This document shows, piece after piece, positions 1,340-47,559 of a stretch of 47,559 bases of DNA. Below the pieces are notes generated by a model. It did no database searches, had not been told where the DNA came from, and was given only the letters and a program-made list of their open reading frames with translations. Location: assembly GCA_051941275.1 (NCBI GenBank), contig JAVEBF010000026.1:1-47559 (forward strand), written 5' to 3'. Origin of the DNA: Dirinaria sp. TL-2023a. Its lineage: Eukaryota. The position numbers and the translations under genes are program-made. Positions within the stretch are counted from its first letter, which is position 1. Every line of letters starts with the position of its first letter.

Positions 1340-2472
1340 TTATTGTTCCATTAATCATGAAACAAACTTTTCTATAGAAACCGATTCTATTACTATAGGC
1401 ATAGAACTGTGAAGTATACCACATATTTCTGAACATTGCGTATATCTCAATAATTAGTTCGTATTTTTATTAAGAAAGTATTTATCCCTAAGCATAAATA
1501 TTTATATTTATACCTTTTTAACAAAGAACATTATAAAAGTTCTTCTGCATCTGCACTTTTTCAAGTGGGGTCTGACTATATTTTAAGCTTGCGCCAACCA
1601 ACGTCTAGTCGATGAACTACACACCACTTAACCATTAATAATTATAAATGGTGCTTAGCTGCGGGTCACCCATTGTACTAACTATTGAATCATCAATTTC
1701 TCTTTTACCATACCACGAGCAATTACCTGTGCCACCAAAATATTACTACTTTGACTTGGTTGAAATTGCTTTAGGGACTTCCCGCAATTTGATGGTTTCT
1801 TTTTATTAAAATTAATAAAAATTAGCAAAAGGTTTACTTTTACTTTGGCCTTAGACCAAAAAAAATACCTTGTCTATTGATAAAAACAGATACTTGATTT
1901 AATCTACCGGGGTAAGCATCACATTTAATACCTAAAGCAGGGCAGGCGAAAGAGTGTATAACGTCGGCCCCTGTAACGACAAATCTAACATGAGTTAGTT
2001 CTGGTATAATAACTTTATTATCCACTTCTAACATTCTTAGTGCACCATCTTCTAAATCTGATTCGGGTGTTAAATATGAATCAAATTCGATAAATTCATC
2101 ATCATTATTTAAAAAATCAGGGTACATGTAGCTTCAATATCATTGATGTCCTTCTGCTAATACAACCATAGATGGATCACTAACTTCGTCCATTAAATAT
2201 AGTAGTTTAAAAGAAGGAAATGCTATAAGTAATAAGATTATAGCAGGTGTAATAGTTCAAATTAATTCTATAGATATTCCATGACTTAAGTTTTTATGTG
2301 ATAGAGGTGATTCTAAATTATTATATTTTATTGCTAAAGATACTAATATTCACCCTACAGCAAATAATATTATAACTAAATAAAACAAAATGTTATCATG
2401 TAGTTCAAGTAAACCTTCCATTTGAGGCGATGCACTATCTTGAAAATAAACACCTCAAGGTCTAGGAGCATC
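1340..2472 (-). CDS. cox2: Cytochrome c oxidase subunit 2; exons 2472-1855 and 1438-1340; no own ATG, in frame with cob
   Basis: [25 protein letters not shown] and the CuA motif [17 protein letters not shown] at 1340-1342. Confidence 0.95.
1439..1854 (-). other. Group I intron in cox2, 416 nt, no ORF
   Basis: Exon ends in T (GGT), intron ends in G; core motifs TCATCGACTAGACG and AAATATAGTCAG; splicing restores FFG|QCSE. Confidence 0.9.
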
Positions 2473-2637
2473 CAATCATATAATATTTCCTTCTTTTGAT
2501 GAGGAACCATACTTACGATCTAGTATGAACCAAACTAAAAGGCATCAATGATGAATAACTTTTTTAAAGTTAATTTTACTACTGTATCTAATAAAATTAC
2601 TAGGTATAATGATTTTTTCAGGTAGCACTGTATTATC

Positions 2638-3789
2638 CTTTACCGATAATTCTATTAAAGTATTTTCTAGTAAGCTAATAAAAGGTACTATAATTAAGAA
2701 ATATGAAAAATATATAACTGTAGATATCTGTCCAAACTCTATAAATGGAGATTCAACATGTTTAGCACCTAATAGCATTAAAATTAAAAAGTTACCTATG
2801 AATATAAAAAACGCTGCTTTACTTAAAGGTCTAAACTGTATACCTCTGAATTTAGATAAATCAGTATATGGCATTGCTAATAAAATTAGAATAGCAGAAA
2901 ACATAGCAATAACACCTAATAATTTGTTAGGTATAGATCTCAAGATAGCATAGAAGGGTAATAAATATCACTCGGGTACTATAGCAGGAGGTGTTTGCAT
3001 AGGATTAGCCATCACATAATTTTCACTGTCTCCTAAAAGATTAGGCATAAAAAATACAAAAAGAGATATAACTAACATAAAAATAAAGATAGTTATTAAA
3101 TCTTTAAATATAAAATAAGGTGAGAAAGGTAATCTATCGTAATTACCTGATACACCTAAAGGATTTCCTGAACCTGCACTATCATGTAATGCTATTAAAT
3201 GCATTAAGGCTAACGCAGCTAATATAAAAGGTAAAACGAAATGTAAAGAATAGAATCTATTTAATGTGGCATTGTTAACAGAAAAACCACCTCATAAAAA
3301 TTCAACTATATCCTGTCCAACTCAAGGTATAGCACTCATAAGGTTAGTAATAACTGTTGCACCTCATAAAGACATCTGCCCGTATGGCAAAACGTACCCC
3401 AAAAACGCTGTAGCCATCATTAAAAGAAAGATTATTGTACCTATAGTTCATACCAAAGTTCTAGGCGCTTTGTATGATCCATAGTACAGTCCTCTACCTA
3501 TGTGTAAATAAACTAAAAAAAAAAAAGCAGATGCTGTGTTAGAATGTAAATAACGAACAAACCACCCATTATTTACATCACGCATAATATGTTCTACCGA
3601 ATTGAACGCTTCTAAAACGCTAGGACTGTAATGCATCGCTAAAGTTATACCAGTAACAATTTGTATTCCTAAACAAAAACCTAAAAGAGAGCCGAAATTT
3701 CATAAATAACTTATATTTGAGGGTTGAGGTGAATCTATTACGTATGAATTTGCTAACTTAAGCAAAGGATGACTTTTAAAAATTCTCAT
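2638..3789 (-). CDS. cob: Apocytochrome b; no stop codon, frame continues into cox2
   Basis: MRIFKSHP start, WNFGSLLG, PEWY motif, ends near [10 protein letters not shown]; internal TGAs are Trp. Confidence 0.96.
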
Positions 3790-7958: not shown

Positions 7959-8819
7959 CTAACTTAAATTTGTTAGTTGATCACGTATAGATTTATTGTT
8001 AGGCATGTTTCAGTAACGGACTTGGTCATAAGGTCTACCTGCAAAAACTTTATTATAGAATTCACGATTATGAGCAAGAGATCAATCATGCAACCAATCA
8101 TTTAGATACTCACAGAAATATGTCTTACTAGGATTTAATTTATTAGCACGTAAAAATAAAAGGTGATCAGCAACCATTCTACCTACAATCCTATTAGATA
8201 GCCCGTTAGTATGAAAACCACCTATAAGAAACATTCTCCACCTTGCTACCGTTCCGATGTGTACTGGTTTATTCACGTAGCTTTCATCAGGGGAAGGTAA
8301 AGGACTAGTATTTGGATACAGTCCAGGAACTTTTCCAGGTAATTGGGCGGAAGAAGCAGGTATATTATTTGTACCAGACCCGCTAGCTGTTGTAAGTGTA
8401 TTATTTCCACCTTGACCCACACCACCAGAAGTGTTTTGCATATGCATAACTGTTTTTATACCAAATAAATCTCTTATAATATTGGAATCTAGCTTCGGTA
8501 ATATCAAAGTGGTTGAAGATCAGATATATAATAAGCTAATACTTTTTAAAATATCTAAATTGTAATGTACGTATCACATATGTAAGATTGTTGTTACAAT
8601 AATAGGGAAAATTCCTACACATATAAGAATTATAGTGCTTGGTTTATTGTTTCCTTTAATAAAACAAACAGATATAACGTGTAACACTGCTACAATTCCA
8701 CATACTATACAAATATATTCAATAAGACCTAAGTAAGATAATAATTTAATCATAGGTAATTTTAGACCTAAATAGAATAGAATTGATATAGGTAAACTAA
8801 ATTTTATGAAATTTAACAT
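7959..8819 (-). CDS. Orphan membrane-anchored protein, 286 aa (orf286)
   Basis: Track ORFs 8574-8819 and 8082-8507 join through TGA=Trp and run to TAG at 7959-7961; hydrophobic N-terminus, G/S/T/N/P linker, complex C-terminal domain. Confidence 0.8.
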
Positions 8820-9119
8820 TGATTTATAAAAAAAGATAACAATGGTACAGTTAGCACCGAAATAAAATTATATAATAAAGGATTAAAAAAAAATGTATGC
8901 AAAATAAATAGGTAGATAGTTAAATATATCTTAAAAAATGCACAAAGGCAAAAACATATCTACCTACTAAATAAAGAGAATGAAATATATTATAGACTTC
9001 CCCCAAAGGGAATAAAATGCGCAATATTATGAATAATATAAGTGAATAAAAGATGCAATATATGAATAATATAAATGAATAATAATGTAATACAGTTTGT
9101 AATATAAGGTATAAACTTA

Positions 9120-18659: not shown

Positions 18660-19926
18660 CACCACAACTAAAATTAAATTCTTAATATAATCCATTCCTA
18701 TATCTGTTAACGAGAATTATTTAGCTAAACCCTTAGATGTTAATGTTACTAATGGTCCTATTAGTCATCTTTATTTAGAAATTAGTGGTAAGTTAACTAA
18801 TTTTATAGATATTATTATAGATAAAGCCAAAATTTTAAGACCTAACCATAAAGATAAAATAATTTATTTTTATAGTAATTGGTAGTTTCATTTACTTAAA
18901 GATAAGTTTTATTATATATTAGCTGTTAAAGTATTAAATGCAAATTCTATTGAAAAAATTAGATATTCTTTAAACGGTGTTATTATTAACCATATTATTG
19001 ATAAGGTAGTTGGTAATCTTATTGAGAGAAATTTAGGGGAAAAACAGCTTATCATAGATGGAGATAAAATAGTTTTTAGTAGACAAAATGTTAAATTAAA
19101 AGCTCTTTAAAAATCTAAACATGTTAAACCCCAATTTGTAGAAAATAGCAAGATAGGTGTTATTGACTTAGAAACTTATAAAATTAATGAGAGTACTTTT
19201 AAAGTTTATGCTTTAGGTTTTAAAACAAACTTAGAGGTAAAATCTAAGGTATATTACATAGATAAGGAGAAGTTAGACTCAAAGAAAAGATTCTTTTCCT
19301 TAATCGATGAATTACTTAGACCTAAATATAATTTAGTTACATTTTATTGTCATAACTTAGGCGTATTTGATATCGTATTCATTTTAAATGCTTTATACAG
19401 TTATAATGAACAAGACCAAGCTGATAAAGATAAAGTATCTTGTGTTTTAAGACATGATAAAATTATTAAGGTAAAAGCTAGTAAGGATAAAAACAGTTTT
19501 ACTATTTTAGATAGTTATGCTATGATGGCTGATAACCTTGATAAGTTAGGACTTAATTTTAAGGTATCTATTATTAAATCTAAATTTCCTTACAGATTTG
19601 CCGTACAAGATCACTTATTTTACAAAGGATCTATGCCTGGTATTGAATACTACGATAACATTACACTAGGGGAATATAATAATTTAATTGTATCATATTG
19701 AAATATGAAAGAAGAAACACTTAAATATTTAAATAATGATCTTTATACTTTACACCAAATTTTAATTAAAGCAAATAAACAAGTATTTTTAGATTATAGA
19801 ATTAATATAAGCGAATCTGTTACCATATCGGGTCTTGTTTTTAAGATATATTTAAAAGATTTTTATAATAATAATATACCTAATATAAACAACGTTAGTA
19901 TTTACAATTACATTAGAGAAGCATAG
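18660..19926 (+). pseudogene. dpo: Linear-plasmid family B DNA polymerase fragment (exonuclease region)
   Basis: ExoI GVIDLETY, ExoII FYCHNLGVFD, ILDSY, KSKFPYRF and ExoIII YLNNDL; internal stops; truncated at IREA*. Confidence 0.88.
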
Positions 19927-27761: not shown

Positions 27762-28541
27762 TTAATGTAAATCTAAACCATCTTTAATATAACTACAAGA
27801 TAACACCACAAATACTTGTGCTTGTATAAATGATATCCCAAACTCTAAGCCTGAGAATGCTATAATAAAACTTAAAGGAATCAAACCTATAAAAAATAAA
27901 GCGAAATTAGTAGTCATAATATTATAGGTGAAACCGCTTAAAATATTAAGCAGCATATGCCCGCTCAATATGTTCGCGGCTAGTCTAAGGCCTAGAGAAA
28001 CATTTCTAGCCAAGTATGAAATAAACTCTATTAATACTAGTAGGGGCAATAAAGCTAAAGGACACCCGGCTGGTACGAATAAAGAAAAAAATTTTAATCA
28101 GTGTTCTTCTAGTCCTAAGATAGTTGCAGAAAACACTACTGTAAAACTAATAGAAAATGTTAAAATAAAATGGGAGGTAGATGCAAAACTGTATGGCACC
28201 ATACCTAGTAAATTATTTACTAATATAAATAAGAAAAGTGCAAAAATAAATGGGAAATAAATTTGTCCTCTACTAATATTTATTTGATTCAAAACTATAG
28301 TATGTACAGTTGCGTATATAGACTCCTGGCCTAAAGATCAAACACCTGCGACCGTCTCTTTATGTTTGGGTACTAATTTATTTATTATTACTGTTATTAA
28401 TGCAGCACTTAATATATATATACCTATATTGGTTATAGATGCGTGAACATTTGCTAAAATGGGTGCATCAAAAATTATATAATCTCTTACTTTAAACTGT
28501 TCAAGAGGACTCGATATAAATAACTGCTTCTCAATTTCCAT
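27762..28541 (-). CDS. atp6: ATP synthase subunit 6 (259 aa)
   Basis: SPLEQF, SLGLRLAANILSGH and IQAQVF motifs. Confidence 0.97.
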
Positions 28542-28885
28542 GTATTTAACAAGAGATGTAAAAATAGTTTAACAGTTTTATAATAAAAATCTTTCTGTAA
28601 AATATAATTTTGTAAAAGATCTAGCTCTTTGTATTTAACTATTTGTGCTACAATAACTTACTTAGACTAAAATTTATCTTTCTTTTTAAATTTATAAATA
28701 ATTGGATTAGACTATGTATCATCCTTAGACATCAGACCCATAACATTATCACAAAATACAAGCAGTATTTTACTAATATCGTTACCAATACAATTAAATG
28801 GAAATTAAAAAAAACATATGTTTTTGTATAATACATTTATTTTTATTAAAAAACAAATAGTGATGGCTATAACGTATTACACTAA

Positions 28886-36362: not shown

Positions 36363-39300
36363 TTACTGTTGCGTACAATCTGACGATTCATTCCTCTCAT
36401 CTATATAGTCAGATGGTGCTTGATCCGTAACAGGTTCTTGATCAGCTCTATCCTTTCACGCGGGTCTTGTTTTGTCAGTGTAACAATATTCATGTTTTTC
36501 TTCCTCGGTAATACATTCCCCATGATAAGAGCAACTACACTTGCATTCTCAGATCACAGGGCCATAAACATCCTCACCACACCTACAACATTGTTTATGG
36601 TAAGCCTTTATATTATTTTCGTAAATTTCTGAGGGTTCACCACCAGGCCCATTTATCGACGGAGCTCCTCAATCGTCTATATGTGGTTGAGCTAAAGGGT
36701 ATGGTAGCCATGCCTCGCGCCTTTGACGTCAGCCATCATGGTTAGGCCGGTCCAAACATGATTGACCCGCATCATGACTACAATTGTTTAGCTTAAATTT
36801 TTCTTCAAGCTCCGCAGGTGTCAGATTTTCTTGATTTCTCACCGGCTCCGTTGGAGAATTAGAATCTGGTAAATAACCAGACGGGTTATTAGTTTCTTCT
36901 GTGTTACTAGCTCCTTCTGTATTACTAGCTCCTTCTGTATTACTAGCTTCTTCTATACTACTAACTGTGTCAGGGTTAACCATAAATTCCGGATTTAATG
37001 CCAAATTTGAAAAATTTCATGTTAATAAATATAATATTCAAGTTATCAATTTAAATTTTAGAGGATTATTCATAATTCATAAAAAAATAAGTATTGCATA
37101 ATAATATAAATTAAGTTTTTTATTTTGTAAAGATAAACCCGCTAATAGTTTAGGACTAATTAAAGATCACTTAAAAACACTTGGCACAGTCTTATTTAAA
37201 CCTACATATAAGGCCAGCACAAAAAGTAAAAAGATAAAATAGTTAAGAAGAGAAAAATAAGGTATTAACATATAGATAAGTAAACCTATTAATATGTAAA
37301 GAGCGTAAGACGTAATAACGCCACTATCTAAATCCGCTATTTTTCTACTTAAATTAAGTAGTGCTCTTTCTAAACCGAAAGGACCAATTAATTCTACAGA
37401 ACCTTTATCTAAAGCTTTTGTAGTATGTGCACCTAATTTGAAAACAAGATTGGTAATATATTTGTTATAAAAAAGCTCAATTAAGAAACGCTGGTTAAGA
37501 AAACTAAACACATTAGAACCTATTTTAGATAGTTTAAAGTAAATAAGTAAAGAAGGTAAATATTCAGAAAATAGTAAAGATATAAGGATTAATATTACTG
37601 TTAGAGTTAAAGGTAATAATTTAAACACGTTTGTTACGGCGAATTCTGTATCTAACATAATTTCATGTACAGGGTGTATGAATATACTATTATCTGAGAA
37701 AAACCCAGAGCCTAAACCAATAAAAATATCTTTAGTTAAATAACCAAAAAATATAGAAAATACTGCTAATACAATTAAGGGCATGCTCATAAAAATATCA
37801 CCTTCATGTGCTTTCTTATAGTTAAGAAATGGCCCATTAGGATTAGTCAAGAATGTTAAGTATAATACTTTAAATGAATATAAAGTAGTAAACATAGCAC
37901 CAATGGTTGCTATAAAATACACTATAATACTAGAATAAGAAAAGTGTCCATATGCTGATTCAAGTATAAGATCTTTACTGTAGAAGCCAGTCATAAAAGG
38001 AAAGGCTACTAAACTAAGAGAAGCTATTAACATAACTGAATAAGTTAAGGGTAAAAATGCTTTTAACCCTCCATATTTTCTAAAATCTTGATTATCAGCT
38101 CAAGCATGTATAACAGCACCAGCTCCTAAAAAGAGTAATCCCTTATAAAAAGCATGATTTACCAAATGAAATAAGGCAATATTATAAGACGATAAACCTA
38201 TAGCTATAACCATCATACCTAATTGCAATTATGTGTTACAATTTAATTTTAAAACACATATATTTTGGACCATTTATTTATTAATTTTTATATTTATTTA
38301 TATCATCCATAATTGTAACTAATCTAATAAGTTTCTTTAAACCATCATTACTTGGCATTCTTTTGGGTCTACAATCATAAAATTTTTGTATTAAAACAAA
38401 TCTAGATGCTTTAGCTGTTCTTAGAGGATATTTACTAAAATATCTGTCTATTAAATTATATATTTCAACTGTTCTAAAAACTTCGTATTTAAAAGCTTCT
38501 ATTCTAGTAATTGTAGGACAAACTCTACCTCAATATAATTTTTGTAAGGGTTCTAATAAATATTTATTTTTTTGAGTAACACTTATAGAAATTTGCCCAA
38601 ATGAATCATCCAAATCTATTGAGCCACTACTGTCTATAAAACCACTAAACCAACCGTTGTCGAAAGTTAAAGCTAATGGTTCTTTAAAGTTTATGCCATA
38701 TTTAATACATAATTTATTTAACTGTAGCATACGACTTGGGTCTCTAATCAAACCATTTACTGCATTAATAAAACGAATAATACCTTTTTTACTGCGTATT
38801 TTATATTTTAATGCTTTACCACTTGATACAGAAGTTATTCTTCCTCCATACACGTACATAATTTCATATAATACTGCTTTATCTTTTACATCCATTGTGA
38901 TTTCGCAACTTGCATAGCCTTTTTTGGTTAAGTTAAAACAACCACTACCATCCATTAGACCAGCTAATCATTCATAAAATTTTCTCATCTTTGTATCTCG
39001 AGAAATAGATTCATTATTAGGCATATTTATTTTTTCGCTTACTGGTGTAATTTTTAGATTAGATGTGGCATTTAAAGGTGCACAGTTAAATATACACAGT
39101 ATGTTTGATGTAGTTATATTAGACGTATAATTATAAAGAATAGTTATAAGCATTGTATAGATAAGTGAGATAAATGATTCATATCGTAAATTAATCTTTA
39201 TTAATTTAATATCAATTAATATCAAACGTATGGCCTCTGAGATTCCTACTAGCTTGCTTATAATAATAAATTTTCACCTGTATATTTCTCTAACTCGTTT

Positions 39301-41729: not shown

Positions 41730-41872
41730 GTATTCTTGTTAATAAATTTTATTTTTTATTTGTGTGTGTGTGAAGTAATTATGGTGTAATAATAACAACT
41801 TATATTATAATATATTTTTTTGTGTGTGTTAGTGTGTATACACTACCAATGTTATTTAGAAATTTTCTTATA

Positions 41873-41925
41873 GTTTCTTATCTAAGATTTGAGCTTAGAT
41901 ATTCATATTAGAAATATCACATCCT
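41873..41925 (-). pseudogene. 5'-truncated tRNA-Arg pseudogene
   Basis: Matches the anticodon arm, T arm and 3' acceptor strand of the tRNA at 3920-3990, with a damaged T-loop and no D arm. Confidence 0.75.
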
Positions 41926-42542
41926 AGCACGATATCCTCTAAAGTGGTAGAATCCCCTTATTGAGAAAATCTTCCTTTTTGTATTTATTTATATCTTTAA
42001 AAAGATAATATAAACCATCCGACCTAGGAAGACCTTTCCTAATAGCATGATCCAAATTTGGGAAATTTTGGGTATTTAAATTTTTAGTGATAGATAATAT
42101 TATTATAATAGATTGTTTAATAATATGCATAAAATATAATTTTGTAACATGTAAAACCACTTGTGCTACAAAAACTTACTTATAAAGAATGAAATTTATC
42201 TGTTTTTTTTAACCTATCAGATATTTTATAATAATTTTAAGCATACCTAGAAATTGTTTTATTGTATAATGGGGGCCCCGACCTAAATAATATTACTTTA
42301 AAAAGTAATATTAAGTTCATTTACGCCCCTTATCGTGAGTAACAACCACCTTTCTTTTACCCTCCGGCTGTAAGTATTTTACACTCTATACAAGTTATAT
42401 TATTAAATTAATATGTTGTAACTGTTCCAAGATTATATAGAGATGGGGTAGTTTTTAACAAAAAATATAATAAATAAAAGTGATTTACTTTAATAAGCTA
42501 TAAACACATATTATATAATATGAATATTATATAAAACATATT

Positions 42543-46696
<4,154 letters not shown>

Positions 46697-46845
46697 TTAA
46701 ACAAATTAAAACTGAGTGTTTTAAAAGACCGGAAGGTAAAAACATATAATATATTAAGCAGGGTTAATAAACCCTGCTTAATTGATAAGGAAAGTAAAAC
46801 AAAATTAAGAAACAGCCAATATTAGACTAGTTAGTAGCAAACTAA

Positions 46846-47073
46846 TTAACAAGGTTGACCACACCTTGGACAGTTTCTACCTGGTAACACTCAAGTTACT
46901 TCTCCCAGGTGTAAACAGTTAGGACACCTAACACCTCGTACAGCTGGATAGAATATAGGTATCATTATAAATATTAAAGAACAAACAATAATTAATGATA
47001 ATGTGTCTACTGAGTATAATGTAGAAGCTATAGTATAGTAAACTGATAATAACATGTTAAAGAATGGTGTCAT
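46846..47073 (-). CDS. 75-aa hydrophobic protein with zinc-ribbon-like tail (paralog A)
   Basis: Ends GVRCPNCLHLGEVTWVLPGRNCPRCGQPC* under code 4. Confidence 0.85.
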
Positions 47074-47109
47074 ATATTTAAAATAAACTAATGGAAAATG
47101 GTAAGGTAA

Positions 47110-47337
47110 TTAGCAAGGGTGAAAACACTTTGGACAGTATTTACCCGGTAAGACTCATTGTTCTATTCCACGTTCTCAACATTTAGGACACCTAACACCA
47201 GGCATAGGATCCGACATTATTGGAAGAAGTATTAATATTAAAAAGCAAACAAGAATTGAACTTAGTGTATCTATAGAAGCTAACTCTCTAGCTAATATAG
47301 AGTTAAGTGCTAGTAACATATCAAAAAGTGTTGTCAT
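47110..47337 (-). CDS. 75-aa hydrophobic protein with zinc-ribbon-like tail (paralog B); absent from the ORF track
   Basis: MTTLFDMLL...GVRCPKCWERGIEQWVLPGKYCPKCFHPC*. Confidence 0.85.
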
Positions 47338-47559
47338 TTATAACAAGAAATGTAAAAATAGTTTAACAGTTTTATAATAAAAAATTTTGTTTTTTTCTTA
47401 TTTTTTTAAAAAATAAGAAAAAAAATTAAAAACTTTTTGATAGAAGAGATTTTTATTTTTTTAGAAAATAAGAAAAAAAATAAAAAGATTTTTGTAAGAG
47501 ATTTAAATTTTTGTACATAACTATTTGTACTACAATAAATTACTTATAGTAAAATTTAT

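Follow-up and report, generated by a model that had tools for sequence, protein, structure and literature searches.

Upstream of cox1 in the mitochondrial DNA (mtDNA) of Dirinaria sp. TL-2023a stand two short open reading frames (ORFs) of equal length that share a cysteine-rich tail. What do they encode, and where did they come from? The window analysed here, 47,559 nt long, is a whole circular fungal mtDNA whose ends overlap by 141 bp; it was read with translation table 4, and the minus strand carries its core genes as well as all of its 25 tRNAs. The features on which the argument draws are the following.

47110..47337, minus strand: ORF A (P0002), 75 aa, with a helical N-terminus, a transmembrane segment at about residues 24-42 and a C-terminal 31-aa Cys4(+1) knuckle
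46846..47073, minus strand: ORF B (P0001), 75-aa paralog of A with the same architecture; scaffold retained, variable tail positions altered
47074..47109, minus strand: spacer between the ORFs and leader of ORF B, 36 nt
47341..47383, minus strand: atp6 5' leader, proximal copy; immediately precedes ORF A and matches 28547-28589 at 42/43 positions
47482..47559, minus strand, continuing across the circular junction to about 204: atp6 leader, distal copy of 141 nt that matches 28600-28740 at 79% identity
28547..28740, minus strand: native atp6 5' leader, within the spacer between atp8 and atp6 (atp6 ATG at 28541); template of ORF A's leader
46753..46782, minus strand: hairpin of 13 pairs, 64 nt below the ORF B stop
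46680..46713, no strand assigned: second palindrome, 34 nt, overlapping the opening point of the cox1 frame
45884..46696, minus strand: first reading frame of cox1, exon 1 running into an intron; downstream neighbour of the pair

A tandem pair of ORFs beside cox1

The original prediction had described two 75-aa ORFs, 36 nt apart, as membrane-anchored zinc-ribbon proteins unlike any canonical mtDNA gene. The ORFs are confirmed, and a membrane-anchored Cys4 knuckle outside the canonical gene set is supported. Both frames start with ATG and end with TAA on either side of the spacer at 47074-47109; the proteins align without gaps at 38/75 identical residues (51%), and the DNA is 69% identical over 238 nt. 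All of the shared motifs that had been listed are present in this alignment, including five tail cysteines at residues 50, 53, 68, 71 and 75 of both proteins, which give the 31-aa tail the spacing C-x2-C-x14-C-x2-C-x3-C with a Trp between the CxxC pairs (TGA is read as Trp twice in A and once in B). A hydrophobic segment at about residues 24-45 of each product (best 19-residue hydropathy 2.5-2.6), together with an AlphaFold model that places a helix at residues 2-41 and predicts the knuckle with pLDDT 92-94 and a short helix between its two CxxC pairs, bears out the membrane-anchored Cys4 design as a prediction; no Pfam family was found for either protein. Lys and Arg number 0-1 before the hydrophobic segment and 4-5 after it, a charge distribution that would fit a matrix-facing tail and an orientation like that of Atp8. 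The same 75-aa design recurs in P0163 and P0155, and the exact length of 75 aa is found in four proteins; P0054 is a cut family member of 59 aa. P0163, from another source, is identical to B at 49/75 positions and to A at 42/75, and this greater closeness to B hints that the duplication predates one speciation.

ORF A begins directly behind borrowed sequence. An AT-rich palindromic insert lies between the proximal and distal copies of the atp6 leader, of which the proximal is better conserved (p=0.004). The spacer ahead of ORF B resembles the atp6 leader no better than shuffled sequences do (p 0.86-0.88), and its reading as a remnant of that leader was rejected for this reason; the origin of the MT-x-FD N-terminus was not identified among the genes of the mtDNA. 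An unrelated 286-aa ORF (7959-8819, minus strand), which has a hydrophobic N-terminus and is without a Pfam match, lies behind a copy of the atp8 leader (8820-8917, about 90% identical), so that leader borrowing occurred twice in this genome.

The pair may be co-transcribed with cox1, as the original prediction proposed; two palindromes stand between ORF B and cox1, and the hairpin at 46753-46782 is possibly a 3' end or processing site. The cox1 frame is without an ATG: it opens at 46696, about 150-185 nt below the ORF B stop, and since no ATG follows the stop at 46697-46699, the start of cox1 would have to be non-canonical. For a stretch that is half cox1, the RNA runs from a single lichen sample contained a share of 0.23 of its words, a count in which cox1 and the ORFs are inseparable; no set of sequencing runs contained half of the stretch's words. 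A bacterial promoter scan, a type of scan not apt for mtDNA, gave results at chance level.

Several other features of the window were recorded. Just after cox1 lie a third, weaker copy of part of an atp6-type leader (42155-42225) and a degenerate trnR-like copy (41859-41917). The second nad5 frame (36363-38216, minus strand) runs about 290 aa beyond its NADH5_C match; this extension, for which Pfam gave no hit, passes through further hydrophobic segments and a short tandem repeat and includes a tail rich in Cys and His. The cob gene and the first part of cox2 form a single open frame of 649 aa (1840-3789, minus strand) with no stop between them; atp9 was not found in the mtDNA, and matches to ATP-synthase subunit c occur on three nuclear contigs (C461, C814 and C1389). 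A fragment of an organellar plasmid-type DNA polymerase B lies on the opposite strand (19522-19926, plus strand; Pfam E 1.5e-20).

An unannotated family with a nuclear counterpart

Searches with the tail led to no described family. In Pfam, A and B gave best E values of 0.17-0.49, below the cut-off, and 28 relatives gave sub-cut-off ribbon hits only; RpoP-type hits were seen for 5/28 members at E of about 0.001, below the curated cut-off. NCBIfam and PDB sequence searches made no assignment for the tail. Four fold searches with the knuckle yielded nothing within the thresholds of E<=0.001 for Foldseek and Z>=5 for VIA, the domain being too small for these results to exclude kin, and a VIA search with the whole model was filled by the long helix. 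With a nuclear homolog as query, the ESM Atlas yielded one cluster of 150 hypothetical Ascomycota proteins and no family.

Three identities were considered and rejected. RanBP2/NZF fingers follow the consensus W-x-C-x2-C-x3-N-x6-C-x2-C; the tail has a different spacing, its Trp lies between the pairs, it has no conserved Asn, and the RanBP2/NZF family is absent from the Pfam scan listings. Intermembrane-space proteins of the Cox17/Cox19 type are helical hairpins with twin CX9C or CX3C motifs, and the tail carries two CX2C pairs in a knuckle fold. A fragment of a homing endonuclease, plasmid or virus, and with it the known mobile-element protein that might have overturned the original prediction, is contradicted by the lack of LAGLIDADG, GIY-YIG or polymerase Pfam hits in A and B and by 0 matches to one pattern in viral contigs. 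Nor did one query of prokaryote genomes bring up a relative.

The original prediction had suspected similar tails among unannotated ascomycete mitochondrial ORFs, and profile and DNA-pattern searches did retrieve such relatives. A profile of A and B gave 213 representatives at E<=0.001 (member details from the best 150), a deeper profile 170 proteins (details from the best 120), and a DNA pattern search 59 metagenome loci; a few of the listed profile hits are spurious (for example, P0011 and P0123). Among the matches listed, N-terminal hydropathy is bimodal, dividing soluble from hydrophobic members, and the soluble ones, annotated only as hypothetical proteins, occur in Usnea, Discula, Cytospora, Thermomyces, Penicillium, Aspergillus, Ophiocordyceps, Coniochaeta, Amorphotheca, Hymenoscyphus and others. 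By its sequence, the tail belongs to an unannotated Pezizomycotina family missing from Pfam; a search of largely open-access literature found no description of the family or its motif. A derived subtype without G-V-R and Trp includes soluble proteins (P0203, P0216, P0224 and P0108) and mitochondrial-type (mt-type) ones (P0034, P0036, P0040, P0070 and others), and its occurrence in both soluble and membrane-anchored forms suggests a second nuclear paralog with mitochondrial copies of its own. A divergent knuckle was also noted at the N-terminus of a 574-aa BAG-domain protein (P0125), a link that, if real, would hint at a chaperone-linked binding role.

The genome of the same fungus contains one nuclear match (contig C1003, 9022-9114), where the gene is predicted to begin with a soluble exon of 45 codons whose last residue is Pro; a GT-AG intron of 111 nt that contains a branch motif follows, and then an exon of 31 codons that encodes the whole knuckle. 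Nuclear origin was assigned to 55/59 metagenome loci, and in 52/55 an AG directly precedes the tail. Among 39 distinct nuclear loci, a candidate exon 1 ending in Pro was found at 28, candidates without Pro at 5 and none at 6, the exon 1 donors being predicted and the Pro-ending one counted where several were possible. The annotated Usnea protein P0157 and its unspliced read-through cluster mate P0158 diverge exactly after the junction Pro, which appears to confirm the predicted position of the intron; in 13/31 annotated nuclear proteins the junction residue is Lys, not Pro. A PI-PLC gene lies about 3 kb upstream of the nuclear homolog in this genome, and a phospholipase C is the upstream neighbour at 8/29 other nuclear loci compared (3-kb flanks), spanning three tail subtypes. 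The locus is therefore old and vertically inherited, and the A/B module has in the nucleus a syntenic counterpart with a predicted intron. This intron-containing counterpart and the borrowed atp6 leader go beyond anything in the original prediction.

The nuclear gene also bears on selection. Between A and B, dN/dS over the whole length is 0.62, with 0.51 for the N-terminus and 0.87-1.02 for the tail (overall bootstrap pN/pS 0.48-1.08), a weak signal because mitochondrial codon bias, and probably conversion too, hold pS low. The earlier claim of purifying selection thus fails to gain support from the paralogs, whose tail value nominally reaches the dN/dS near 1 that was to refute it, and stands instead on the nuclear comparison and on the position of the changes. 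A neutral simulation with the observed 72 substitutions (5,000 runs per ancestor) kept an open frame and all five cysteines in 0.06-0.08% of cases, and the A-B tail differences fall at 2/15 columns conserved in the nuclear family versus 12/16 variable columns (Fisher p=0.001). The tail of A differs from its own nuclear gene with pN 0.12 and saturated pS, sharing the codon at 5/25 common residues; a second pair, mitochondrial L015 and nuclear L016, has pN 0.06 and pS 0.83. That A stays so near the nuclear copy in protein while synonymous sites are saturated points to strong purifying selection, under which A and B appear to be real genes. No residual nuclear codon usage was found in either, and a GC3 of 0.15-0.18 (core genes, 0.13-0.21), along with TGA read as Trp, is what a functional mitochondrial gene would present.

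Mitochondrial copies and their origin

Four metagenome loci (L015, L018, L030 and L049) were classed as mitochondrial from DNA, and with A and B they make up the only six mitochondrial tails so classed; most others were assigned by a rule of hydrophobicity and composition, which left 46/224 parsed rows unclassed, and 13 proteins did not parse. The ORFs of L018 and L030 lie upstream of the true cox3 and open with a duplicate of its start, that of L015 ends just before atp6, and three mt-type members probably share contigs with cox3. Among the matches listed, at least 11 N-termini are atp9-like, at least seven atp8-like and at least three cox3-like, at least two extend cox1, at least four are of the A/B type and at least 61 are other, in classes that are pattern-based and supported by Pfam in six cases (one weakly) plus one weak cox3 hit. 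In L030 the leader and start of cox3 are duplicated a third time (1640-2377, plus strand), running into an unrelated acidic repeat-containing ORF. In L049 (887-979, plus strand), a tail near-identical to that of L018 is fused to a longer cox3 start and has an internal stop, which suggests that some copies decay; the locus would be either a decaying copy or a nuclear insert.

The junction with the tail is informative about the template. Among the matches listed, the junction residue is Pro in 43/67 mt-type proteins, Lys in 5/67, and Gln or Glu in 0/67; since the end of an intron would give Lys, Gln, Glu or a stop, the mt-type proteins are colinear with the spliced mRNA. The tails also resemble those of particular nuclei. 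Among the matches listed, the A tail is identical to its own nuclear gene at 26/31 positions, the best score of 116 nuclear tails (next 25, median 18), and reaches 24/31 with the best of 84 other mitochondrial tails and 17/31 with its paralog B. The B tail matches the nuclear gene at 18/31, which is not its closest, as 17/116 nuclear tails score as high. The nuclear homolog of this genome has a Usnea-like tail, which together with the lichen origin of the RNA sample makes a lichen-forming host probable. It is also the best nuclear match of the mt-type protein P0013, which probably shares its contig with a cox3 89% identical to that of the window. A Usnea-like tail is also found in L018, whose Lecanorales-like cox3 is 94% identical to a Cladonia/Pseudevernia cluster, and a Leotiomycete/Sordariomycete-like tail in L030, whose cox3 is 87% identical to a cluster with Spathularia (a loose match). 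Each of six nuclear anchor subtypes, 13-25/31 apart, has mt-type tails nearest to it, and two mt-type/nuclear-type pairs, one without the fifth Cys, share all 31 residues (classification of both pairs by protein features alone).

Mitochondrial and nuclear labels are interleaved in a tree of 201 rows, with 30 changes. A strict set of 28 mitochondrial and 55 nuclear rows has 12 label changes and rejects a single mitochondrial clade (p-AU 0.011), in unrooted trees of 31 columns with most branches unsupported and under an AU test that cannot separate transfer from convergence; 13 unparsed proteins, most of the 46 unclassed rows and duplicates were left out. Mean identity is 18.4 among mitochondrial tails and 17.7 between mitochondrial and nuclear ones.

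We hypothesize that a spliced nuclear module was captured repeatedly into mtDNA and kept as a membrane-tethered zinc knuckle, a reading to which we assign a probability of roughly 55%. It is built on the ORFs, their homology, the context of the nuclear gene, selection, the duplicated leader and the non-monophyly of the mitochondrial copies; from these we infer the intron boundaries, the direction of transfer, the RNA route, translation, topology, zinc binding and a shared partner, as follows. Pezizomycotina carry an old nuclear gene with a variable soluble exon 1 mostly ending in Pro, a predicted phase-0 intron, and an exon for the 31-aa Cys4 knuckle. A spliced copy of its 3' part, presumably by mRNA import and reverse transcription, would have entered the mtDNA and come to lie behind duplicated 5' sequence of a core gene, either its leader or its start; in this genome that sequence is the atp6 leader. 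The copy would then have gained an AT-rich transmembrane N-terminus, been recoded to mitochondrial usage, and later been duplicated into A and B. The products would be single-pass inner-membrane proteins, most likely N-out/C-in like Atp8, presenting to the matrix a tail that may bind zinc or have a redox role, in our scheme as a zinc-bound protein-binding module. Because A retains the surface of the nuclear protein, it would probably bind the same partner, as a tethered version or a mimic, and B, with the scaffold kept and the surface changed, would have a changed partner. Had the moves gone repeatedly from mitochondrion to nucleus, every one of them would have had to acquire an identical intron position and neighbour, so that repeated capture from the nucleus is the simplest account of the interleaving. 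Whether there were many independent retro-captures of one spliced exon in Pezizomycotina mtDNA, fused to OXPHOS leaders and anchors and selected to match the host's nuclear version, possibly in mito-nuclear mimicry or conflict, is a more tentative proposal, for which the odds fall a little short of even.

The main rival is a single ancient transfer, in either direction and with one nuclear intron gain, which could also have given this distribution if vertical inheritance was accompanied by co-evolution or convergence, because the proteins bind each other or a shared partner specific to the lineage. Convergence is feasible in a domain of 31 aa with some 15 fixed columns, the lack of an intron in mitochondrial copies is also expected with mtDNA as the donor, the labels are clustered on the tree, and the mean identity among mitochondrial tails is slightly the higher; synonymous sites are saturated in both measured mitochondrial-nuclear pairs, so no recent transfer has been caught. 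We nonetheless consider this the less likely history, given the rejection of mitochondrial monophyly (p 0.011), the two pairs with 31/31 identity (again, classed from protein features only), the mt-type tails nearest to each of the six nuclear subtypes, the N-termini from unrelated donors, and the failure of one query of prokaryote genomes to find a bacterial relative.

Two further explanations concern why the ORFs persist. Selfish CMS-like chimeras would be anchored mimics that skew the transmission of mtDNA or impair male function in spermatia or conidia, and the nuclear gene would be what they target or what suppresses them; such a role would be compatible with the capture route and would differ in the reason for retention. 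Borrowed core-gene sequence as in plant CMS ORFs is found here (the atp6 leader before A; atp8, atp9, cox3 and cox1 coding pieces in relatives), as is a transmembrane segment in A and B by hydropathy and model helix; several paralogs probably share one mitochondrial contig, and the turnover of N-termini, the decayed L049 and the surface-changed B would fit as well. A stable role is better suited by the close match to the nuclear sequence and by a length of exactly 75 aa in each of four proteins, and a literature search for CMS-like ORFs in filamentous fungi (titles and the starts of abstracts) found none on such ORFs; we rate a selfish function as rather improbable but a genuine alternative. 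Least credible by far is that the pair is neutral debris, a duplicated, untranslated chimeric ORF open by chance. An A-B tail dN/dS of about 1 and the broken L049 are what it would predict; the rarity of intact frames in the simulation (0.06-0.08%), the low pN against saturated pS, the avoidance of conserved columns (p=0.001), the better conservation of the proximal leader and the full-length 75-aa relatives elsewhere have already largely refuted it.

Relation to known systems

Capture of a nuclear module would set the pair apart from the chimeric ORFs it most resembles. Plant CMS ORFs likewise combine borrowed atp or cox sequence and a membrane anchor beside a core gene, and their passengers are mostly lineage-specific orphans. 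The A/B module, by contrast, turns up in several fungal classes and shares its conserved sequence with a nuclear gene. Among Helotiales mtDNAs, Phialocephala ORF_01 has a duplicated atp9 start followed by unrelated sequence and was judged probably non-coding by its authors (partial text of PMC3434094), and Sclerotinia borealis ORFs 0044 and 0116 have duplicated atp9 or atp6 starts followed by unrelated sequence (partial text of PMC4162613). Like A, these carry a duplicated leader or start of an ATP-synthase gene ahead of an ORF without an assigned function; compared by description only, they differ in that the excerpts of the two reports (PMC3434094, PMC4162613) name no zinc term, conserved passenger domain or nuclear counterpart, whereas the passenger of A and B is a selected domain with a nuclear homolog that contains a predicted intron.

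The tail itself shares two CxxC knuckles and a conserved Trp with RanBP2/NZF fingers and C4 ribbons (ZRANB2, Rpo12/RpoP and NOB1), a likeness that is weak (Foldseek E 3.9, RpoP E 0.13, all below cut-offs), and it differs from them in the 14 residues and short helix between the knuckles, the Trp between the pairs and the terminal fifth Cys. As to the mitochondrial setting, N-acetyltransferases and aminotransferases are encoded in some ascomycete mtDNAs and have nuclear relatives (partial texts of PMC3434094 and PMC7902536). They are, like A and B, non-core Pezizomycotina mtDNA genes with nuclear relatives in the databases; they are sporadic enzymes, and the same excerpts (PMC3434094, PMC7902536) report no recurrent lineage-matched capture or spliced junction. 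In filamentous fungi atp9 is found in both nuclear and mitochondrial genomes (partial text of PMC7902536), so that here too one family is encoded in both. However, atp9 came from the endosymbiont and was transferred to the nucleus, whereas one query of prokaryote genomes found no relative of the knuckle module, and its mitochondrial copies are chimeric.

Functional gene flow normally runs from mitochondrion to nucleus, and the reverse is considered very rare in fungi. If this is true, mRNA import and retro-integration could be tested repeatedly on a module that is found in the mtDNA of different fungal classes, with a spliced junction and a sequence that follows its host's nuclear version. Such a module would also raise the question of why a mitochondrion keeps its own tethered copy of a nuclear protein. 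Even with a single transfer, what has come to light is an unannotated family, missing from Pfam, that is encoded in both genomes under strong selection. The 'junk' chimeric ORFs behind duplicated atp and cox starts in fungal mtDNA may therefore deserve a second look.
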